Source of the DNA: Candidatus Daviesbacteria bacterium
GTDB taxonomy: Bacteria; Patescibacteriota; Microgenomatia; Daviesbacterales; UBA10151
Assembly: GCA_028715175.1 (NCBI GenBank)
Contig: JAQUSJ010000002.1
Span: forward strand, 22,285-86,284
Length of the DNA stretch: 64,000 nucleotides
Reading direction: 5' to 3'
A model generated the notes under the pieces. The model saw only the letters and a program-made list of their open reading frames with translations, had not been told where the DNA came from and did not search any database. Of the stretch, positions 6,161 through 62,434 are shown in pieces (positions within the stretch are counted from its first letter, which is position 1; every line of letters begins with the position of its first letter). Position numbers and translations under genes: made by a program.

Positions 6161-6222
6161 TAGTCGTCAGCTGTCAGCTTTCAGTCGTCAGACTTTTTAT
6201 TTTCTAATCTGATAGCTACTCT
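6161..6222. repeat. heptamer-array hairpin element, copy 2 (between mreC and mreD)
   Basis: 'tagtcgtcagctgtcagctttcagtcgtcagac' - loop - 'tctgatagctact'. Confidence 0.8.
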
Positions 6223-8484: not shown

Positions 8485-8904
8485 GACAGCTAATTTATCT
8501 AGATTAGCTACTATATAATCTGGTTTCTGATTTGGATTCTCAGGCAGTTCATTTACAAATTTACCTTGTCTCACCCAAATGGTAACTGCTCCTAATTTTT
8601 TGCCGATTTCCAATTCTGACCTGACTCTGTCCCCAATCACCAAAACCTCTTGAGGATTTTTGATGAATTTTTGGAAAGTTTGAAGATCTTTTTCTTTATC
8701 GCTAAAAACAATTTCCTGAAAATACTTTGCCACACCCAGTCGCTTAACTTCCTGTTTCATATCCTGCCCGCCTTTACCAATTAAAATCATGGGGATATGT
8801 TTGCTTCTTAGAAATTTTAAAAGTTCCACGGCTCCAGGAAGTAAAACTTTTCTGTCAGGATCATACAAGGTCCTTTTCCAGTCAAAAATAATCATGTCAA
8901 ACAT
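8431..8904 (-). CDS. HAD-superfamily hydrolase (phosphatase)
   Basis: 'MIIFDWKRTL' HAD motif I and 'VIGDRV' motif IV; convergent 54-bp overlap with pyrE. Confidence 0.6.
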   Translation of the reverse strand: MFDMIIFDWKRTLYDPDRKVLLPGAVELLKFLRSKHIPMILIGKGGQDMKQEVKRLGVAKYFQEIVFSDKEKDLQTFQKFIKNPQEVLVIGDRVRSELEIGKKLGAVTIWVRQGKFVNELPENPNQKPDYIVANLDKLAVLFKTHLFAPRDRVFGPI

Positions 8905-9052
8905 AACTTAATATCCACTTTCCTATCTCCTGTTCACATTAATATCACGAATATCACAGCCATAACATTAATGTCAACGGAGAATCTATGAGGTAGTTGC
9001 AAGTGGAATAGCAATAATCTTTACCAACAGAAGTGTAAAATTAAGCTAATTT

Positions 9053-10657
9053 CTAAATTTGATCAGGATTTAAAAAAGTTCCGTCAACACAACTTCTGTA
9101 ACCCTTTGAACTTGTACAACTTCCGCACAAACCAACTCCACATTTGGTCATAAAATCTATTGAAGAATAAATTTTTTCTGACTTGATCTTTTTACTTTCT
9201 ATTTGGATAGCTTTTTTTATCATTGGCTCAGGACCACAATTTAAACAACAATCTGCTTTAATATTTTTAATCATCCTTCCTAAATTATCAGTGACTAATC
9301 CTTTTTGACCTACTTCTCCAGACTCTGTACTCAAATACACCTCTTTACAAACATTTCTAAATTTTTCATAAACCAAATGTTTTTTATCTCTTGCTCCCAA
9401 CAATGCTACTACCTTTTTATCTCTTTTGGCGAAAAGATAAAGAGAGGCTATACCTGTTCCACCTCCAACCAGTAATGTTTTTCCAGAAATTTTTGGTGAA
9501 TTTCCATAGGGCCCTTTAATATAAATCGTATCTCCTTTTTTTAATTTTGATAATTCACAAGTGAAACATCCTCTCTTTTGTATAAGTAAGCTCATTGGTT
9601 TATCATCAAATACAGAAAACGGCTTTTCACCTTTTTCCGGCAACCAGGCAAAAATAAACTGCCCTGGTTTTATTTTTATACCAGCGTCAAATTCCAGTAA
9701 AAACAAGTCGTCCGCCAGTTTCTTATTTTCTTTCACTTTATATTTCTTATAATCCATATTGACCTTTTCTTTTAGAATCTTTGCGGCATTGTTTGTATTT
9801 TTCTCCAGGTCTTTTGACAATTCATAAAAATATTTTTTTATTTCATCTGTTCTAAGACCAGTCAACGCTGAGCCAATCCCAAAATAATTTGAGCCAGCCT
9901 CTTTGAATCTTTTAATATCTTTGGCAGTTGATATTCCGCCACAAGCAATAATCGGTAAATCTGTCATTTGACGAATTTTCTTAACGCAATTTAGCCCTAA
10001 TTCTAAAATCGCTTTGCCGGATATTCCTCCCACTTTATTGGAAAGAACTGGATAACCATCATGTAAATAAGATACCGGACCTTTGGTATTTATGGGCACA
10101 AATCCAGCAGCTCCTCCCCGTAGCGCATATTCCACAGTTTTCTCTACATCAATATTTGGTGAAATTTTAACAAGTGTTGGTTTTCCCAATGAAACCACCC
10201 TCCTTGTTACCTTTTCCACAAGCTCGTTGTCTGCGCCGACAGATTGGCCATATTTACCGGAATGAGGACAGGAAATATTCAATTCAAAACCGTCTGCGAA
10301 GCTGACTAATTTTTTAGCCACTTCAAAAAATTCATCTTCATTGCTTCCAAAAATTGAGATTAAGAGGAACTTGTCATCTGGAATTTTTACTTTTGAGAGT
10401 TTCTTAACATATTCATCTACTCCCGGATTGGTCAGACCAACAGCATTAATAAATGAAGATTGAGCGTACTGAGCAACGATTGGTTCTTTGTATCCTGCCC
10501 GAGGTATAGGACCAATACTTTTTGTAGTTAGAATCCCGATTTCCGGAATTTCATTTCCGATTTTCTCAAGTACCTCTACCTCCGTGGTAACAATTCCCGC
10601 TGGAATAGTAAAAATTCCACTAATTCTCTTTCCAAATAATTCATATTTACTTTTCAT
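9053..10657 (-). CDS. pyrD: dihydroorotate dehydrogenase (class 1B catalytic domain) fused to a PyrK-like FAD / 2Fe-2S electron-transfer domain
   Basis: The N-terminal ~300 aa is a DHOD TIM barrel ('ISCPHS', 'IIACGGIST'). The C-terminal ~230 aa looks like a ferredoxin-NADP-reductase fold ending in 'CGVGLCGSC...C', the PyrK cluster motif. Confidence 0.8.
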   Translation of the reverse strand: MKSKYELFGKRISGIFTIPAGIVTTEVEVLEKIGNEIPEIGILTTKSIGPIPRAGYKEPIVAQYAQSSFINAVGLTNPGVDEYVKKLSKVKIPDDKFLLISIFGSNEDEFFEVAKKLVSFADGFELNISCPHSGKYGQSVGADNELVEKVTRRVVSLGKPTLVKISPNIDVEKTVEYALRGGAAGFVPINTKGPVSYLHDGYPVLSNKVGGISGKAILELGLNCVKKIRQMTDLPIIACGGISTAKDIKRFKEAGSNYFGIGSALTGLRTDEIKKYFYELSKDLEKNTNNAAKILKEKVNMDYKKYKVKENKKLADDLFLLEFDAGIKIKPGQFIFAWLPEKGEKPFSVFDDKPMSLLIQKRGCFTCELSKLKKGDTIYIKGPYGNSPKISGKTLLVGGGTGIASLYLFAKRDKKVVALLGARDKKHLVYEKFRNVCKEVYLSTESGEVGQKGLVTDNLGRMIKNIKADCCLNCGPEPMIKKAIQIESKKIKSEKIYSSIDFMTKCGVGLCGSCTSSKGYRSCVDGTFLNPDQI

Positions 10658-12434: not shown

Positions 12435-14498
12435 ATGTTGGATAAAGTTATCTCTTATTCCTTTTATCTGCTATTTTTTCTTACCCCTCTTTTTTGGACA
12501 TCTTTCAATTACGAGCTTTTTGAATACAACAAGATGCTTTTAGTTTATGGCTTTACTGTCATTATTGTTGGTGCATGGATCCTTAAAATGATCAACGATC
12601 AACGATTAACGATCAAACACACTCCCTTGGATATTCCCCTTCTTTTATTTTTAGGTGCAAATATTCTTTCCACCATCTTTTCCATAGATCCCCACACCTC
12701 CATTTGGGGTTATTATTCAAGATCTAATGGCGGCCTCTTATCTTTAATCTCATATCTTCTATTATATTGGGCATTTGTTTCCAACATGGATTCCTCCAAA
12801 GTCAAAACCGTCCTCAAGTTTGGACTGGCTTCAGGTCTGATCATTTCTCTGTGGGCCATTTCAGAGCATTTCGGAGCATCTCCTTCTTGTCTGATTTTAC
12901 GGGGAGAGCTTAATGATGCCTGCTGGATACAAGATGTCCAAGCCCGGGTTTTTGCCAGCTTAGGTCAACCAAACTGGCTGGCAGCATATCTTGCCATGCT
13001 AATTTTCCCTACCTTATATTTTTTCTTAACCGCTTCTTCCCGCATACTACATACTACATACTACATACTACTTGTGACATATTATTTGGCTTTTACTTTT
13101 ACCTATTCCAGAGGACCAACATTAGGGCTGATCGGAGGAATGATAGTATTTTTGATTTGCTACACTTTCTGTCATCCTGAGGGAGCAAAGCGACCGAAAG
13201 ATATAATAATTAGATTCTTCGCTTCGCTCAGAATGACAAAGCTGGCGGGTGTTCTTGCGTCTTTCCTACTAATCAACCTGCTTTTTGGATCAGCCTTAAC
13301 CAGCTTCAGGCTAGTTTCCAAATTTGCAGCACCGGCAAGACCCGAGATCTCCCTTCCAACAGCTCCCTCGGGTACCCAACTGGAAAACGGTGGCACCGAA
13401 TCAGGCCAAATCAGATTTATTGTATGGCGCGGGGCTTTGGATATTTTTTTAAATTATCCAATTTTTGGTTCAGGCCTGGAAACCTTTGCCTATTCCTATT
13501 ATAAGTATCGTCCCATCGAGCATAATCTCACCTCCGAATGGGATTTCTTATACAACAAGGCTCATAATGAGTATCTTAACTATTTAGCCACTACTGGAAT
13601 TGTTGGGTTTGGAACATATCTGTTGGTTATTGGTACGTTCGTTGTATTTTGTATTAAGTATTTTGTATTAAGTATAAAAAATTACAAGATACATAATACA
13701 GGATACATACTACTTACTACCTGCTTGCTTGCAAGCTACATCTCCTACCTCGTCTACAACTTTTTCCTCTTTTCTGTAGTCATAATTGCCGTCTTTTTCT
13801 ATCTTTTCCCGGCCCTTGTCTTTGTGATCACTGAATCTACCAAACCGCTTAAGATTCCTTCTGCCTTCCATTTTCTATCTTCCATCTTCCGGACTATTTA
13901 TCATCGGCCTTTGTATACAAAAATTACTAAAGGTATCGTGGTTGTCCTTACTGTATATTTCCTATATTCCATCTTCCAGCTCTGGTGGGCAGATACCCTT
14001 TTTGCTGAAGGTCAAAGAGTCTCTGAAGCAGGCAATCCCGGCAGGGCATACAACCTGCTTTCCAGTGCTTCACAGTTAAACAAAAATGAGCCTTTCTACA
14101 AATCTGAGCTTGGTTTTGCCGCAGCTCAAGCTGCAGTAGCTTTACAAGATATAGATGCCACTCTTTCTGCAGAGTTAAAAAACGAAGCTATACTACAAAC
14201 AGAAGAAGTTTTGCGATCAAGCCCTAAAAATGTTTCATTTCTTCGTGCGGCAGTCAGAACCTATTTCGAGCTTTCCAGTTTTAATCAGACCTATGCAGAT
14301 AAAACTCTGCAAACGCTGGATTCGGCAATTAAGTTGGCTCCAACCGACCCGAAACTCTATTACAATAAAGCTCTTGTTTTGGATACAATGGGGAGAAAAG
14401 ATGAAGAGATTAGTGCTTTACAAAAGGCTATACAATTAAAACCAAATTATCTGGAGGCCTTTGCCCAGCTAAAAGAAGCAACTGCTTCGGCAAAATAG
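12435..14498 (+). CDS. O-antigen ligase-like polytopic membrane protein with C-terminal TPR repeats
   Basis: About 12 TM helices followed by TPR-like 'ALxLxP' repeats; it contains an in-frame palindromic element and two heptamer arrays (listed under repeats). Confidence 0.55.
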   Translation: MLDKVISYSFYLLFFLTPLFWTSFNYELFEYNKMLLVYGFTVIIVGAWILKMINDQRLTIKHTPLDIPLLLFLGANILSTIFSIDPHTSIWGYYSRSNGGLLSLISYLLLYWAFVSNMDSSKVKTVLKFGLASGLIISLWAISEHFGASPSCLILRGELNDACWIQDVQARVFASLGQPNWLAAYLAMLIFPTLYFFLTASSRILHTTYYILLVTYYLAFTFTYSRGPTLGLIGGMIVFLICYTFCHPEGAKRPKDIIIRFFASLRMTKLAGVLASFLLINLLFGSALTSFRLVSKFAAPARPEISLPTAPSGTQLENGGTESGQIRFIVWRGALDIFLNYPIFGSGLETFAYSYYKYRPIEHNLTSEWDFLYNKAHNEYLNYLATTGIVGFGTYLLVIGTFVVFCIKYFVLSIKNYKIHNTGYILLTTCLLASYISYLVYNFFLFSVVIIAVFFYLFPALVFVITESTKPLKIPSAFHFLSSIFRTIYHRPLYTKITKGIVVVLTVYFLYSIFQLWWADTLFAEGQRVSEAGNPGRAYNLLSSASQLNKNEPFYKSELGFAAAQAAVALQDIDATLSAELKNEAILQTEEVLRSSPKNVSFLRAAVRTYFELSSFNQTYADKTLQTLDSAIKLAPTDPKLYYNKALVLDTMGRKDEEISALQKAIQLKPNYLEAFAQLKEATASAK
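12591..12618 (+). repeat. (ATCAACG)x4 heptanucleotide tandem array inside a CDS
   Basis: 'atcaacgatcaacgattaacgatcaaac'. Confidence 0.85.
13044..13071 (+). repeat. (ATACTAC)x4 heptanucleotide tandem array inside a CDS
   Basis: 'atactacatactacatactacatactac'. Confidence 0.9.
13170..13238. repeat. ~69-bp palindromic MITE-like element (GTCATCCTGAG...CTCAGAATGACA) inserted in-frame in the O-antigen-ligase-like gene
   Basis: Arms TGTCATCCTGAG / CTCAGAATGACA; the ORF continues through it ('CHPEGAKRPKDIIIRFFASLRMTK'). Confidence 0.7.
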
Positions 14499-14607
14499 CC
14501 TTCAGCTATCAGTCATCAGTCGTCAGATAATTGCAATTTAAGTCTGAAAGCTGACAGCTGAGAGCGAAGCCGCGCCAAAGGCGGGCGAAGCGATACTGAC
14601 GACTACT
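14498..14607. repeat. heptamer-array hairpin element, copy 3, with a nested GCGAAGC-type insert (14562-14595)
   Basis: 'ccttcagctatcagtcatcagtcgtcagat' ... 'agtctgaaagctgacagctga' + insert + 'ctgacgactactATG'. Confidence 0.8.
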
Positions 14608-15541: not shown

Positions 15542-15622
15542 CTTTCAGCTATCAGTCATCAGTCGTCAGACTGATATAATTTAAAAGTCTGAAAGCTGAT
15601 GGCTGAAGACTGACGACTATTT
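15541..15622. repeat. heptamer-array hairpin element, copy 4 (between def and fmt)
   Basis: 'gctttcagctatcagtcatcagtcgtcagac' - 'tgatataatttaaa' - 'agtctgaaagctgatggctgaagactgacgactattt' then ATG. Confidence 0.85.
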
Positions 15623-33124: not shown

Positions 33125-33213
33125 AATTAGTTATTAGTACGCTCGCTTCGCTCGCTGGTAGTTCATAGTTCATAGTATTTTCTACGAGCTACCAACTCAT
33201 AACTACGAGCTCA

Positions 33214-33495
33214 TTACGAACTTTCTAGCTTGCTCATATTCATTCCTATTCCTTTAAGCCTTAAAAGTGGATCGTTAAAATTAAATGTTTTGGTTTGGAT
33301 TGCAGTTTGAACTCTAACTTGTTTGGTATGTGGAATAAAATCCTGGGTAAAAGCTCGTAGATCATTTAGAGCTATTCTGACATTTCCACCTACCCGGACG
33401 GCTTTTAACTTACCTTCTTTGATGTAGCGCCTTACTGTTAAAGGATGTACTTTTAATGCTATAGCTGCCTGATTAACAGTATAAAATTCTTCCAT
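33214..33495 (-). CDS. excisionase-family / MerR-like HTH DNA-binding protein (putative antitoxin partner of the PIN protein)
   Basis: 'LKVHPLTVRRYIKEGKLKAVRVGGNVRI' HTH_17-type motif. Confidence 0.6.
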   Translation of the reverse strand: MEEFYTVNQAAIALKVHPLTVRRYIKEGKLKAVRVGGNVRIALNDLRAFTQDFIPHTKQVRVQTAIQTKTFNFNDPLLRLKGIGMNMSKLESS

Positions 33496-38532: not shown

Positions 38533-38600
38533 TGTCATTCTGAGGCTGAAAGCCGAAGAATATAACTGAAATTATATCCTTCGCTACGCTCAGGATGACA
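38533..38600. repeat. ~68-bp palindromic MITE-like element (family 'TGTCATYCTGAG...GCGAAG.../...CTTCGC...CTCAGRATGACA'), intergenic copy
   Basis: Arms TGTCATTCTGAGG / GCTCAGGATGACA, inner arms GCCGAAGAATATA / TATATCCTTCGC. Confidence 0.7.
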
Positions 38601-43466: not shown

Positions 43467-43530
43467 CTTTCAGTCGTCAGTCGTCAGATTTTAAGTCTGA
43501 CAGCTGAAAGCTGATAGCTGACGACTATTT
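43467..43530. repeat. heptamer-array hairpin element, copy 5
   Basis: 'ctttcagtcgtcagtcgtcagat' - 'tttaa' - 'gtctgacagctgaaagctgatagctgacgactattt' then ATG. Confidence 0.85.
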
Positions 43531-48050: not shown

Positions 48051-48743
48051 ATGGACGATAATAAGCAGAAAACTAAACCTACTAAGACGATAGATAATGG
48101 AAAGATGGAAGATAGTACTTTGAAGATGGAGGGTGGAAAATCAGAACAAGACGATCAATCCTCTACCATCAAAGTTCAATCTTCTACTGTCGATCTTCCA
48201 TCGTCAAAAAATGATAACCCTGATGCCCGCTGGTATGTTGTTCACACCTATTCCGGTCATGAGAACAAGGTTGCCTTGACCTTGAAACAGCGGGTTGAAT
48301 CAGAGCATCTGGAAGAGAAAATTTTAGATGTTTTGGTGCCTACGCAGGAAAAAATTGAGATCAAAAGCGGCAAAAAGGTCAATGTCAAAGAGAAAATTTT
48401 CCCTGGTTACATCTTAGTAAAAATGGTGTTGGATGATGCTTCCTGGCTGGCGGTCCGGACTACCCAGGGCGTAACCAGCTTTGTAGGTATGGGCAATAAA
48501 CCAACCCCGATCTCTGATAGTGAAGTTGCAACCATCGTCAAATTTACTCAAACAGAAGCTCCGATGTATAAACAGGTTTTTGCAGTTTCCGATGCGGTCA
48601 AGATTGTGGATGGACCTTTTGCCGACTTTATCGGTAAAATTGACTCTGTTGACGGCGAAAAAGGCAAAGTGAGAGTTTTGGTGTCCATATTCGGGCGCGA
48701 AACTCCGGTGGAACTGGACTTTTTACAAATAAAGAAAATATAA
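48051..48743 (+). CDS. nusG: transcription termination / antitermination factor NusG with a ~60-aa N-terminal extension
   Basis: NGN '[15 protein letters not shown]', KOW '[15 protein letters not shown]'. Confidence 0.85.
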
Positions 48744-48747
48744 ATCT

Positions 48748-49173
48748 ATGGCTAAAAAGATTAAAACATTGATAAAACTAAATATCCCTGCAGGAGAAGC
48801 TACTCCTGCTCCTCCGGTTGGCCCGGCCTTGGGTCAGCATGGTTTGCCTATTATGGAGTTTGTCAAAGCTTTTAATGATAGAACCCAGGATAAAAAAGGC
48901 AATATCTTGCCGGTTGTTATTACGGTTTACGAAGACCGCACTTTTTCTTTTATTACTAAAGAACCGCCGGTTGCGGAAATGATTAAAAAGACGCTGGGTT
49001 TGGAAAAGGGATCCGGAACTGCGCTTAAAGCTCCTGTAGGCTCACTAACGACAGCTCAAATAAAAGCTATTGCCGAAGCTAAATTGCCTGATCTAAATAC
49101 TAAAAATGTGGAAGCTGCGGAAAAAATAGTTGAAGGAACTGCCAAAAGCATGGGGGTGAAAATCGGTGGGTAG
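48748..49173 (+). CDS. rplK: 50S ribosomal protein L11
   Basis: '[23 protein letters not shown]'. Confidence 0.9.
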
Positions 49174-50107
49174 ACCAAGAATTAAAACAATTGATGATTC
49201 GGCTCCAGAAGTTGAAGAAAAAAAGCAAAAAACTAAACCCGGTAAGGCGGAGCGAGCGAAGGTTGAAACTGACAAAGCAAGTGGCGAAGTTGAAACCACA
49301 GAATCTGTCATTGCGAGCGAAGCCGAAGGCGAAGCGCGGCAATCTTCCGTGGATGAAAAAGATCGCCACGTCGTCCCACAAAGCGGGACTCCTCGCGATG
49401 ACGAAAAAAAAGAAACAAAGAAATCACAAAAACCAGGAAAAGCCAAACCAAGAAGCAAGAAATACCAGGAAGCAGTCAAAAATCTGGACAGAACCAAAAC
49501 ATATCCACTTCCAGAAGCAGTTGACATGGTCAAAAAAATGTCTTATTCTAAAATTAATGCCACCTTAGAAGCGCATATAAACACCGCGCAAACGGGTATT
49601 CGTGGTTACGTCTCCTTACCCTATGCGAAAGGTCGTCAGTTACGCATCTTATGTTTTGGGCCCTCGACCGCCTCGCAACTTGAGGGAGTAGTTTTTGGTA
49701 CCGATTCCACTATTGAAGAGATTAATAAGCAGAGCTTGTCAGTTAAGGCTGGTAAAGGCAAAATTGATTTTGATCTGATTATTAGCACACCTGATTGGAT
49801 GCCTAAACTTGCCAAAGTGGCAAGAATTTTAGGGCCAAGAAGCTTAATGCCCAATCCAAAAAACGGCACAATCACCAATGATATAAAAAAAGCAGTAGAG
49901 AGTTTTCAGACAGGAAAAACAGAGTATAAAACCGAAGCCAAAGCTCCTGTTATCCATATAGCAATGGGCAAATTGGATCAGCCTAACGAGGAACTGGTAG
50001 CTAATATTAAAACTTTGCTGCAGACTTTAGGTAAAACCAGAATTAAAAAGATCACCCTTTCCCCCACCATGGGGCCAGGGGTTAAAATAGATCTAGCTTC
50101 TGTTTAA
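49166..50107 (+). CDS. rplA: 50S ribosomal protein L1 with a ~95-aa charged N-terminal extension
   Basis: L1 core from 'KKYQEAVK...'; the extension contains a fragment of the GTCATTGCGAGCGAAGC element. Confidence 0.85.
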
Positions 50108-51110: not shown

Positions 51111-51203
51111 TAGTAGCTATCAGTCATCAGCTCTCAGCTGTCAGACTTAATATCTGATGACTGATGACTGATGACTGATGACTGATGACTGATGACTGAT
51201 AAA
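51111..51203. repeat. heptamer-array hairpin element, copy 6; its right arm is expanded into a (CTGATGA)x6.4 tandem array
   Basis: 'tagtagctatcagtcatcagctctcagctgtcagac' - 'ttaatat' - 'ctgatgactgatgactgatgactgatgactgatgactgat'. Confidence 0.8.
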
Positions 51204-52822: not shown

Positions 52823-52899
52823 TAGCTATCAGTCTTCAGCTATCAGCTTTCAGACCTAAAAATTGTCTGACGACTGATGACTGACAGCTGACGACTATT
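52823..52899. repeat. heptamer-array hairpin element, copy 7 (upstream of rplJ); followed at 52900-52923 by the small hairpin CCTCG-TTTAA-CGAGG and a T-run
   Basis: 'tagctatcagtcttcagctatcagctttcagac' - loop - 'tctgacgactgatgactgacagctgacgactatt'. Confidence 0.8.
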
Positions 52900-52923: not shown

Positions 52924-53448
52924 ATGGCTAAAACAAGACAACAAAAAGAAGATTCAGTTGCAAAATTATCAGAACAGCTAAGCAAGGCCAAGTCTGTAGT
53001 TTTTGCAGACTATAAAGGTTTGAGCATGAAACAATTATCCAATCTTCGGGATCAACTTCGTGAAGTAAACGGCGAATTTACTATTACCAAAAATACTCTA
53101 CTTCAACGCGCCCTACCAACTACCAACTACCAACTACCAACTGAATTAGAGGGTCCAACAGCCACACTTTTTGCATATGATGACGAAATTTCTCCTATCA
53201 AAATATTAGTCAAGACCTTAAAAGATGTTGCTTTGGGCAAAATAAAAAGCGGTTTCTTTGGAGGTACTGCATTAGATGAAGGAAAAATACTTCAACTTGC
53301 CGCTCTCCCTACAAAGTTAGAACTAAAAGGCCAGATCGTCGGAATCCTGGCTGCTCCTTTGCAAGGCATGGTTTCTGTACTTAATGGAAATTTACGTAAT
53401 CTAGTTTATGCATTAAATCAAATCAAAATATCGAAGGGAGGTGAATAA
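52924..53448 (+). CDS. rplJ: 50S ribosomal protein L10
   Basis: 'KSVVFADYKGLSMKQLSNLR'; contains the (CTACCAA)4 array. Confidence 0.85.
   Translation: MAKTRQQKEDSVAKLSEQLSKAKSVVFADYKGLSMKQLSNLRDQLREVNGEFTITKNTLLQRALPTTNYQLPTELEGPTATLFAYDDEISPIKILVKTLKDVALGKIKSGFFGGTALDEGKILQLAALPTKLELKGQIVGILAAPLQGMVSVLNGNLRNLVYALNQIKISKGGE
53113..53140 (+). repeat. (CTACCAA)x4 heptanucleotide tandem array inside rplJ
   Basis: 'ctaccaactaccaactaccaactaccaa' encoding 'PTTNYQLPT'. Confidence 0.9.
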
Positions 53449-53449
53449 A

Positions 53450-53521
53450 TAGCTATCAGTCATCAGCTTTCAGCTATCAGACTTAAAAATCTGAAGACTG
53501 ACGACTGAAGACTGAAAGCTT
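53450..53521. repeat. heptamer-array hairpin element, copy 8 (between rplJ and rplL)
   Basis: 'atagctatcagtcatcagctttcagctatcagac' - 'ttaaaaat' - 'ctgaagactgacgactgaagactgaaagct'. Confidence 0.85.
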
Positions 53522-53527
53522 ATTAAT

Positions 53528-54109
53528 ATGGCAGATGATCAAAAACAAGATCAAGTAGTAGAAGAGACAGCGAAGTCTGAAACTGATAAAACCACCCCGG
53601 ACGGTGGTAGCGTGAGCGAAGCGAAGGCTGACTCCTCCGAGGTGAATGCAGCAGAAGCTCCAAAAGAGGCTGAACCTGTAAAAGAGCCAAAAGTAGAAGA
53701 GTCTAAAAAAGCTTCTAAACCAGTTTCAGCTAATCTGGAAAAAATCATAGAACAGATTGAAAAACTGTCTGTTTTAGAGTTGGCTGATTTAGTTCATGCG
53801 CTGGAAGACAGATTTGGTGTTTCGGCTTCAGCTCCGGTAGCAGCTGCAGCCGCAGGCGCAGGTCCAGCAGCAACAGGTGAGCCGGCAGAGGAAAAAACAA
53901 CATTTAATGTTGTCCTCTCGGGTGCAGGAGCAAATAAAATTGCAGTTATTAAAGCTGTCAGAGAACTCGTCCAAACTTTGGGCCTTAAAGAAGCCAAAGA
54001 TTTGGTAGAAGCAGCTCCAAAACCTGTTTTGGAAGGAGTTAATAAAGCCACAGCTGAAGAAGCTAAAACTAAATTAACAGCCGCAGGAGCAACAGTTGAA
54101 TTACAATAA
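53528..54109 (+). CDS. rplL: 50S ribosomal protein L7/L12 with an unusual ~60-aa N-terminal extension
   Basis: '[19 protein letters not shown]' and the CTD '[25 protein letters not shown]'. Confidence 0.85.
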
Positions 54110-62022: not shown

Positions 62023-62090
62023 ATAGCTTTCAGTCTTCAGCTATCAGCTTTCAGACTTTTAATAAGACCTGAAAGCATTGCGCTGATCTG
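62023..62090. repeat. heptamer-array hairpin element, copy 9 (its left arm supplies the stop codon of the IVS-protein gene)
   Basis: 'atagctttcagtcttcagctatcagctttcagac' - loop - 'cctgaaagcattgcgctgatctgg'. Confidence 0.7.
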
Positions 62091-62402: not shown

Positions 62403-62434
62403 GTCTGACGACTGATGACTGATGACTATTAAAC
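62403..62434. repeat. single arm of the heptamer-array element (AGTCATCAGTCATCAGTCGTCAGAC) between argS and the IVS-protein gene
   Basis: Reverse complement of 'gtctgacgactgatgactgatgact'. Confidence 0.7.

Follow-up and report, generated by a model that had tools for sequence, protein, structure and literature searches.

How does palindromic DNA of one kind come to lie, with the reading frame preserved, in the gene of a Wzy-like membrane protein and in the N-terminal extension of the ribosomal protein L1 of a Candidatus Daviesbacteria genome? The window analysed here, a stretch of 64,000 nucleotides from a metagenome-assembled genome (MAG), holds three complete elements bounded by GTCAT…ATGAC (Table 1). 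They are members of a superfamily of short palindromic repeats, non-coding and non-autonomous, that is very widespread. The elements are dispersed, and close relatives have gained, lost or exchanged them at corresponding sites. We consider it probable that they are selfish repeats comparable to REPINs and RPEs, which would be tolerated in frame within disordered segments and would spread through a single-stranded DNA (ssDNA) intermediate by means of a trans-acting enzyme.

Table 1. Repeat elements, their arms and core fragments, and the genes that carry them (positions within the window).
Feature	Position	Strand	Description
Wzy_C/O-antigen-ligase-like membrane protein, C-terminal TPRs	12435..14498	+	Host gene of copy 1; matches Pfam Wzy_C at residues 212-395
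Element copy 1	13170..13238	.	TGTCATCCTGAG...CTCAGAATGACA; 69 bp (23 codons) including flanking T/A, 67 bp within bounds 13171-13237; in frame in the Wzy-like gene
Copy 1, right arm	13213..13237	-	Minus-strand reading is the canonical unit GTCATTCTGAGCGAAGCGAAGAATC
Nested core block	14562..14591	+	GAGCGAAGCCGCGCCAAAGGCGGGCGAAGC; inside an intergenic TCAG-heptad hairpin
Arm-core 11-mer	33143..33153	-	Exact copy of GAGCGAAGCGA; intergenic
Element copy 2	38533..38600	.	Intergenic; bounds 38534-38599, 66 bp
Copy 2, arm	38534..38561	+	Stem ATTCT...AGAAT enclosing GGCTGAAAGCC
Copy 2, arm	38576..38599	-	Stem ATCCT...AGGAT enclosing GAGCGTAGCGA
NusG N-terminal extension, different palindromic module	48100..48206	+	Orthologous segment of relative L002 has a 96-bp GTCAT element instead
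rplA (L1), ~95-aa N-terminal extension	49166..50107	+	Conserved head, variable middle, conserved tail
Module 3, left end	49256..49293		In the variable middle of the L1 extension
Element copy 3	49306..49403	.	Full-length variant of the GCGAG type, 96 bp (49307-49402); lies in frame within the N-terminal extension of rplA; ends GTCATTGCGAG...CTCGCGATGAC, a variant of the terminal repeat
Copy 3, arm	49307..49343	+	Stem ATTGC...GCAAT
Copy 3, arm	49362..49402	-	Stem ATCGC...GCGAT
rplL (L7/L12), ~65-aa N-terminal extension	53528..54109	+	Conserved MADDQ head, variable middle, conserved tail
Arm-core 11-mer	53614..53624	+	GAGCGAAGCGA, tandem GA with a GCGAAGC mini-hairpin; lies in the N-terminal extension of rplL

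The two full copies described in the initial annotation, one in frame in a coding sequence and the other intergenic, are both present. At the L1 site it had rightly recognised repeat DNA within the extension, but what it took for a mere left arm is a complete 96-bp element, our copy 3. The pattern GTCATNNNGAG-N20-80-CTCNNNATGAC matched three times in the window versus none in 100 shuffles, and the 11-mer GAGCGNAGCGA occurs four times versus 0.05 expected. Copy 1, whose left arm is degenerate by a single stem mismatch, is translated through in the Wzy-like open reading frame (ORF) as CHPEGAKRPKDIIIRFFASLRMT. Copies 1 and 2, both of the CTGAG type, are alike chiefly where arm and stem are conserved (69% mean column identity in an alignment considering both strands), so that recent transposition in this genome would be hypothetical. 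Chance similarity through GC-rich codons or low complexity, or an artefact of assembly, has in our judgement a negligible chance of explaining these observations. The rplL match would by itself suit coincidence, being just 13 nt long, but for the three full copies both readings are refuted by the shuffles, by the same element standing at the same site in the independent assemblies of the window and of the relative L003, by the occurrence of elements in isolate genomes and by the intact reading frames of the essential genes.

The conserved structure lies in the arms. Each element, 56-100 bp long, consists of two inverted copies of a small hairpin unit with a variable spacer of 5-40 nt between them, an architecture seen in about 430 elements. 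In each unit a (Y)GTC foot leads into a stem of 5 bp, AT(Y)NN, which is followed by a pair of tandem G.A mismatches and capped by a loop of the form GCGNAGC or GCGNNAGC, and the terminal inverted repeats are GTCATYCTGAG / CTCAGRATGAC and variants of these. Covariation links the Y of GTCATY to the R with which the stem closes, both in the CTGAG type (268 compensated versus 5 mismatched arms) and in the GCGAG type (489 versus 6), amounting to 757 versus 11 overall. A long hairpin was rejected as the conserved structure, since the T and C types of the two arms assort independently (78 hetero, 56 CC, 25 TT) and each arm is internally compensated. The loop census counted GAGCGNAGCGA with N = C in 16, A in 14, T in 9 and G in 7 cases, and GAGCGNAGCGAA with N = A in 60, C in 42, G in 18 and T in 13, besides GCGNNAGC forms; GAGCGNAGCGA(A) loops thus accept any N, and the second loop base is often C, so that this is not a GNRA loop. 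The arm hairpin is also predicted by nearest-neighbour folding, albeit with modest energy. The arm loops match exactly, with any N and with tandem GA flanks, the mini-hairpin DNA GCGNAGC / GCGNNAGC described by Hirao and co-workers, which melts at 76.5 C as DNA and at 39 C as RNA and is known as a physical motif from the ssDNA origins of phages and plasmids and from N4 promoters (PMC13037366). No dispersed family of chromosomal repeats is known to be built around it.

Two of the three window copies, and many of those in relatives, sit within coding sequence. Daviesbacteria carry elements in frame in hypervariable protein segments, namely the Wzy-like loop and the N-terminal extensions of L1 and NusG, and core fragments in L7/L12, and at all these sites, as well as at one intergenic spacer, close relatives hold other elements or none. 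The loop occupied by copy 1 is hypervariable among 120 Wzy-like orthologs. In L1, the head is in frame with the core in 116 of 120 homologs, while the middles range from 25 to 94 aa and are nearly missing in the shortest. The middle in the window holds copy 3, read as 32 residues, together with the left end of module 3; the relative L003 has the same 96-bp element, and L002 is near-identical upstream, then has another GTCAT element, 72 bp long, together with 41 further bases at that place, and rejoins. A full GTCAT-family peptide was found in 33 of 120 Daviesbacteria L1 homologs, in 32 of them within the variable segment, and in no shuffled sequence. That the extensions are translated is deduced solely from the preserved frame; no secondary structure is predicted for that of L1 (by a weak model), and the AlphaFold models of L1 and the Wzy-like protein, with moderate to low confidence (56.6 and 63.2), offer weak support only. 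The rplA start codon is GTG, its product is annotated as 'hypothetical protein', and one Logan contig stops at the rplA start.

The initial annotation had proposed that these extensions are built from exapted repeat DNA. Comparison of the L1 and L7/L12 extensions across relatives, which it had suggested, bears out the construction from repeat DNA for the variable middles (L1, NusG in L002, the Wzy loop), where elements are swapped, but not for the heads and tails that bracket them; the L1 head MGRPxIKxIDDS and a 17-residue tail, like the L7/L12 MADDQ head and an 18-residue tail, are conserved across Daviesbacteria, element-free genomes included. Exaptation itself, whereby the peptides encoded by elements would have acquired a function in the L1, L7/L12 and NusG extensions, such as interaction with the ribosome or with partners, seems to us quite improbable. 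The extensions are indeed conserved Daviesbacteria features with constant heads and tails, and the L1 elements always adopt a hydrophilic VIxSEA...PRND frame while those of the Wzy loop adopt other frames, which shows that the encoded residues are under selection; the choice of frame is, however, explained equally well if harmful frames are purged by purifying selection. Moreover, the element is present in only about a quarter of the L1 homologs, the same segment is filled by different elements, unrelated modules or nothing in relatives whose cores are ~99% identical, and the rapidly replaced peptides show no conservation beyond what the arms of the DNA hairpins impose.

The family is not lineage-specific but pan-bacterial. 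It was found in at least 120 stretches drawn from almost every bacterial phylum, cultured Flavobacterium, Mucilaginibacter and Spirosoma among them, in at least 120 metagenome contigs and, as two variants, in 26 and at least 120 viral contigs, with occasional tandem clusters (L303, L015, L022). Outside the window and the Daviesbacteria examples, ~86% of the elements are not read through. Such sequence conservation across phyla could also mean that selection keeps hairpins useful to the host, either in RNA, where they would act as terminators or stabilise mRNA, as has been suggested for REPs, or in ssDNA, as priming or replication-restart signals like the G4/ssiA-type mini-hairpin origins. Mini-hairpins are found at primase and N4 vRNAP recognition sites (PMC13037366), different hairpin families swap at one intergenic site 3' of a gene, and copy 2 folds strongly as RNA (z = -5.2), all of which would agree with a host signal. 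We nonetheless regard it as unlikely, given that copy 2 lies between divergent genes, that a T-run is missing, that copies occur in coding sequence of unrelated proteins without an obvious terminator or priming role, and that presence and absence vary between close relatives. Rfam gave no match either, since only tRNAs passed the gathering thresholds and copy 2 returned nothing meaningful even at E <= 10. A host signal would be compatible with mobility.

With respect to insertion, Y precedes and R follows the element (positions -1 and +1) in 95% of cases, direct repeats of 2-9 bp, as expected of target-site duplications, were at chance level in 427 elements, and a clean pair of empty and filled sites was not obtained among the relatives compared. 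A classical MITE, that is, a DDE-type insertion sequence shortened by deletion and moved through its terminal inverted repeats, would fit the inverted ends, the small size, the multiple copies and the mixture of intergenic and genic sites. We find this very improbable, however, given the lack of target-site duplications above expectation, a covariation that fits the small hairpins of the arms and not a duplex repeat bound by protein, and the absence of any insertion sequence with such ends among the neighbours (flanks of 3-10 kb). Bacterial MITEs such as Correia, ERIC, Nezha, Chunjie and BOX/RUP are likewise small and foldable, with terminal inverted repeats and some intragenic in-frame copies, but the present elements differ from them in having neither target-site duplication nor parental insertion sequence nearby and in conserving an arm hairpin. 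No recurrent neighbour gene was seen in the 3-10 kb flanks of the bacterial loci, and all-against-all clustering of the ORFs near elements, carried out for a linked transposase, yielded only phage/GTA structural genes and generic families. Besides, Pfam and NCBIfam had no match to the six-frame peptides of the elements, blastn of the copy 2 region found none among GenBank phages, and a full-text literature search with exact DNA strings, typical encoded peptides and Patescibacteria ribosomal extensions returned unrelated primer matches only.

The REP/REPIN/BIME system (RAYT, TnpA-REP, HUH-Y1) shares with these elements the inverted doublets, the short imperfect hairpin, the conserved 5' foot and the variable spacer; both are dispersed and non-coding, without target-site duplications, sometimes in tandem and sometimes in frame in genes (PMC3116915, PMC3337134, PMC6006769), the in-frame insertion of a REP having a precedent (PMC6006769). 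On the other hand, the REP foot is a conserved 5' GT[AG]G tetranucleotide at the hairpin base (PMC6006769), while the foot here is YGTC(AT) without the canonical GT[AG]G; no RAYT was detected near these elements, the HUH...Y motif giving 0 matches by a crude regular expression in ORFs within 3 kb of about 430 of them. REPINs are moreover lineage-specific and vertically inherited and REPs extragenic, whereas these elements are conserved across phyla and often within genes, and their copies in this genome are divergent. The RPEs (Ogata et al. 2000) are Rickettsia-specific sequence families of about 100-150 bp, with a precedent for in-frame insertion (both in PMC10969869). Like our elements they are palindromic and lie in frame in many unrelated, even essential, genes of a small-genome bacterium without disrupting them, adding peptide segments at fold-compatible positions. 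Our elements are set apart by a host of another phylum, their length of 56-100 bp, their pan-bacterial occurrence and their mini-hairpin units, and also by clustering in N-terminal extensions of translation and transcription proteins with fast turnover.

Under the preferred reading of a REPIN/RPE-like selfish repeat, a putative enzyme resembling HUH/Y1 transposases would recognise the foot and the hairpin, and the genic survivors would be those copies that landed in stop-free frames at segments tolerating extra residues. If copies survive only in such stop-free, harmless positions, the variable middles would be by-products of repeat turnover and not designed domains. Counted against this reading is the conservation of one short sequence across phyla, which is unusual for REPINs and which a host function could explain instead. 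More tentatively, and with some doubt, the GTCAT-foot mini-hairpin doublets may constitute an undescribed pan-bacterial, phage-borne family mobile at the ssDNA level, with a widely conserved enzyme as candidate recogniser of the arms (an HUH-type nuclease so far unrecognised, or a core replication factor such as primase or PriA); the turnover of this family would be what mainly generates the lineage-specific N-terminal extensions of L1, L7/L12 and NusG in small-genome Patescibacteria; repeat insertion would then be a routine source of new protein segments on the translation machinery. If the selfish-repeat reading is true, this would be the second clear case, after the Rickettsia RPEs, of selfish DNA, palindromic in form, that essential genes carry in frame, here in the Candidate Phyla Radiation and in ribosomal proteins L1 and L7/L12 together with NusG, and it would provide a concrete mechanism for the origin and fast change of lineage-specific disordered extensions. 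A repeat unit based on the GCGNAGC DNA mini-hairpin, with near-perfect local covariation, would point to a single-stranded-DNA mechanism and give a simple search pattern for the family in most bacterial phyla and phage contigs. The elements would also be expected to break assemblies, distort annotation and create spurious peptide similarities between unrelated proteins.

In rplL, the fragment noticed earlier is an exact arm core of 11-13 nt (GAGCGAAGCGAAG at 53614-53626, the same sequence as the arm core in copy 1). The GTCAT foot and the stem were not found at this site, which is therefore a core fragment or a related module and not an element; a degraded full element was rejected there, as foot and stem are missing and the flanks pair poorly. 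This core is missing in L002 and expanded by a nested hairpin in L003. The related block pointed out near 14562 is real, being 29/30 identical to positions 7345-7374 of L003 inside that relative's rplL extension, and the one within 33131-33215 contains the exact 11-mer core. A second module, ~150 nt long, recurs as DNA sequence in rplA, rplL and the Wzy loop of different genomes. Module 3 was discarded as a hairpin (fold z about 0). The NCBI gene call for rplL in this genome leaves out the N-terminal extension.

The GTCAT...ATGAC repeat is a dispersed family whose covariation-supported hairpin unit occurs in inverted doublets carried in frame within genes, and its copies are quickly replaced at fixed sites that tolerate them, without target-site duplication. 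In the window (G+C ~40%), the pattern search returned three complete elements against none in 100 shuffles, and these copies are divergent from each other. The initial annotation had described two full copies, one in a coding sequence, where the in-frame translation is CHPEGAKRPKDIIIRFFASLRMT, and one between genes; both are present. It had also noted a left arm in rplA, which is there but belongs to a complete element, found with the looser pattern GTCATNNNGAG...CTCNNNATGAC and encoding a 32-residue peptide in frame within the rplA extension. The fragment in rplL is an exact 13-mer, GAGCGAAGCGAAG, consisting of the core only, since its flanks showed neither stem nor foot (the YGTC at the hairpin base). 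The 11-mer arm core GAGCGNAGCGA occurs four times (13219, 33143, 38581 and 53614) against 0.05 expected, and its exact copy at 33143 confirms the block between the PIN and HTH genes. The related GCGAAGC block at 14562-14591 is likewise genuine, sharing 29/30 positions with DNA of a close Daviesbacteria relative (L003, 7345-7374) that encodes SEAAPEAGEA within the rplL extension. Chance sharing of k-mers is thus refuted for the complete elements and for the 11-mer.

Genes and repeats of the window, with gene identities assigned by Pfam
Feature	Positions	Description
Wzy-like gene	12435-14498	Wzy_C/O-antigen-ligase-like membrane protein with TPRs
nusG	48051-48743	
rplK	48748-49173	
rplA	49166-50107	
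rplJ	52924-53448	
rplL	53528-54109	
Copy 1	13171-13237	ends GTCATYCTGAG / CTCAGRATGAC; within Wzy-like gene
Copy 2	38534-38599	ends GTCATYCTGAG / CTCAGRATGAC; intergenic
Copy 3	49307-49402	96 bp, GTCATTGCGAG...CTCGCGATGAC; rplA extension
TCAG-heptad hairpins	2326-2350, 6167-6191, 14502-14561, 15545-15613, 43470-43521, 51120-51199, 52829-52891, 53456-53515, 62030-62054, 62405-62422	

Public collections were scanned with the two terminal-repeat variants of the element, yielding 159 unique elements of the CTGAG type and 267 of the GCGAG type. Every arm is a small hairpin by itself (e.g., GTC-ATTCT-GA-GCGAAGC-GA-AGAAT-C), and the T/C at arm position 6 nearly always has its matching A/G in the stem that closes the arm: the CTGAG type shows 152 C-G and 116 T-A pairs against 5 mismatches, the GCGAG type 471 T-A and 18 C-G pairs against 6. 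The T/C types of an element's two arms (78 hetero, 56 CC, 25 TT) follow the random-pairing expectation. Since compensation sits within arms and arm types assort independently, the conserved structure is the arm hairpin, the long hairpin was rejected in that role, and each element consists of two inverted copies of a single hairpin unit. The rule is obeyed by all three window copies (arm stems of copy 2: ATTCT/AGAAT, ATCCT/AGGAT; of copy 3: ATTGC/GCAAT, ATCGC/GCGAT). In the arms, the loops take the form GAGCGNAGCGA(A), with all four bases found at N, or GCGNNAGC, and some contain an additional nested hairpin. Loops of the GCGNAGC/GCGNNAGC kind are the "mini-hairpin DNA" motif, formed by two G-C pairs and a sheared G-A pair, which melts at 76.5 C as DNA and at only 39 C as RNA and is known from N4 virion-RNA-polymerase promoters and from ssDNA origins, those of phage G4 and ssiA (PMC13037366). 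C is common at the third position of the four-base loops (GCCA, GTCA, GACA), which differs from the RNA GNRA pattern. Of 427 elements, 95% are flanked by Y at -1 and R at +1; no target-site duplication was found around the elements.

The distribution of the repeat shows that it is not lineage-specific. At least 120 stretches of species-representative genomes from many phyla contain the CTGAG type, hosts among the matches listed being Acidobacteriota, Chloroflexota, Patescibacteria, Bacillota, Pseudomonadota, Planctomycetota, Verrucomicrobiota, Cyanobacteria, Nitrospirota, Bacteroidota (with the cultured Flavobacterium swingsii, Mucilaginibacter and Spirosoma) and others; 26 IMG/VR contigs carry it too, and the GCGAG type was found in at least 120 contigs each of IMG/VR and the metagenome collection. 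Beyond Daviesbacteria, read-through is uncommon (23 of 167 copies with at least 40 stop-free codons on each side), and tandem arrays exist, one stretch (L303, 3969-5019) having at least eight copies with a 121-bp period; tandem clusters also occur in L015 and L022, and L338 is a further carrier. CTGAG-type elements recur in one related phage-contig group of IMG/VR (L005, L010, L014-L018, L023, L026, L028 and L029), and GCGAG-type elements are often found among GTA/HK97-like structural gene clusters. The family has no description in Rfam, Pfam, NCBIfam or a full-text literature search. Peptides in the loop of Wzy-like orthologs (below) point to a larger superfamily that would be defined by the foot and not by the stem sequence. 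Another stem variant forms a 100-bp intergenic element in L003 (9463-9562), with the ends GTCATCCCGAC...GCGGGATGAC.

The rplA genes of the window and of L002, another close relative (GCA_028712705.1), are near-identical as far as ...ACCACAGAA, after which the window has its 96-bp element and L002 has 41 other bases and a different 72-bp GTCAT element, encoding VILEGAQQPIES...DAIASLQHD, and the two reunite ahead of CAAAAACCAGG. L003 carries the window's element, with changes limited to the spacer and the inner nested hairpin of one arm. The extension head MG[RK][PT][KR]IKxIDDS is present in 116 of 120 L1 homologs and the 17-residue tail is conserved, whereas the middle varies from 25 to 94 aa; a full GTCAT-family peptide is encoded by 33 of the 120, lying in the middle in 32, against 0 in shuffled controls. 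The element copies are always read in the hydrophilic frame VIxSEA...PRND, and the reading frame is kept in all length variants. No start codon besides a GTG inside the element lies between it and the conserved L1 N-terminus, and the annotated GTG, preceded by GGGGGTGA, overlaps the rplK stop, from which we infer that the rplA element is probably translated. AlphaFold gave residues 1-95 no secondary structure (pLDDT 40-53) in a model that is weak as a whole (mean 56.6). An L1 protein identical to that of the window, PHE48_04430 at NCBI, comes from a Candidatus Daviesbacteria MAG (Microgenomates, Patescibacteria/CPR); the NCBI label is a 313-aa "hypothetical protein" (P0001). In one homolog (P0061), an element-type peptide, VILNKAKRSEES...ANAQDD, lies at residue 182, within the L1 core region. 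A 2375-bp Logan contig (L001, SRR22315506) matches the window in the NusG region, has an identical L11 and ends just after rplK, where rplA starts, which suggests that the extension repeats break short-read assemblies.

In NusG, which likewise has a lineage-specific N-terminal extension, the cores of the window and L002 are ~99% identical and the extensions unrelated: that of L002 holds a 96-bp GTCAT element (8877-8972) encoding VIANEVKQS...TPRND, and that of the window holds a different palindromic module (48100-48206; 16-residue stretch...SSTVDLPSS). The L002 extension also holds the right end of a ~150-nt AKSE...PDE module. The L7/L12 extension is laid out like that of L1, its head being MADDQ, its middle acidic and variable and its tail 18 residues long, and its rplL core is absent in L002, short in the window and accompanied by a nested hairpin in L003. 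A small hairpin module encoding RPE(D/A)DQP(L/M)ADK recurs in these extensions (L003 7455-7490; homologs P0274, P0310, P0346, P0351 and P0358). The NCBI call for the window's L7/L12 is 124 aa and misses the extension (P0279); that of L002 is also short, even though upstream of its conserved MADDQ head there is an ATG that has GGAGGGAGG as a strong ribosome-binding site.

In the Wzy-like protein, copy 1 lies in a hypervariable loop flanked by conserved segments; this loop is empty in some orthologs, holds the copy 1 element in P0127 and P0188 and variants in others, and elsewhere contains other repeat families (SFPRKRES...GMT, ...IPAFAGMT, VQNRFWSRRSAPPQND) or, in the L002 genome, a ~150-nt module. 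Copies there are read in CHPE...LRMT or SFPRK...GMT frames, and in the AlphaFold model (mean 63.2) element residues 246-268 link helices 229-246 and 268-284. Orthologs P0122, P0139, P0143, P0164, P0192, P0209 and P0229 have loop peptides of the kind that other GTCAT-foot variants encode (SFPRKRESIQ...GSRIKSGMT; ...NWIPAFAGMTK), corresponding to GTCATTCCCGC-type arms, and P0140 has VILSEAKNL...TPQDD at a second site, residue 417. Other L1 middles carry recurrent modules, one encoding a 12-residue start...GAKQ...SGALxPDE. Module DNA of the window rplA (49256-49293) matches rplL of L150 at 35/38 nt, and the ~150-nt module of that rplL (10046-10190) matches the Wzy loop of L151 (10750-10896). This module is non-palindromic, common to rplA, rplL and Wzy loop DNA of different Daviesbacteria, and present in many L1 homologs.

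The initial annotation had suggested that some ribosomal protein extensions derive from exapted repeat DNA. Among relatives, the middles vary by repeat modules at the DNA level and the heads and tails are conserved, so that the proposal holds in part: in these extensions, repeat DNA makes up the variable middles but not the conserved heads and tails. Exaptation itself is unsupported, as the sites hold differing elements, other modules or none among relatives.

Among known repeats, the element most resembles REPINs in its architecture of inverted doublets of hairpin units, and Rickettsia palindromic elements in being carried in frame within genes. However, the foot is other than the GT[AG]G of REPs, the element is conserved across phyla, unlike known REPINs, and target-site duplications as in MITEs are lacking; failing both the REP foot test and the MITE duplication test, it is therefore counted as a member of neither. 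By analogy with REP/REPIN-RAYT and IS200/IS605 systems (PMC3116915, PMC3337134, PMC6006769), the elements may move in single-stranded form with the help of an enzyme that acts in trans and recognises foot and hairpin, after which selection would sieve for stop-free frames. No such enzyme appeared among clustered neighbour genes or in a crude HUH...Y regex scan near the elements. A host-beneficial signal at the RNA or ssDNA level is a possible alternative, and is compatible with mobility.

A second intergenic family, unrelated to the GTCAT elements, consists of TCAG(Y)NN-heptad hairpins, with 16 heptad runs in the window against 0.01 in shuffles and six tandem CTGATGA units at 51154-51199. At the intergenic site 3' of the GH1 gene, the window has such a hairpin and L002 a GTCAT element.
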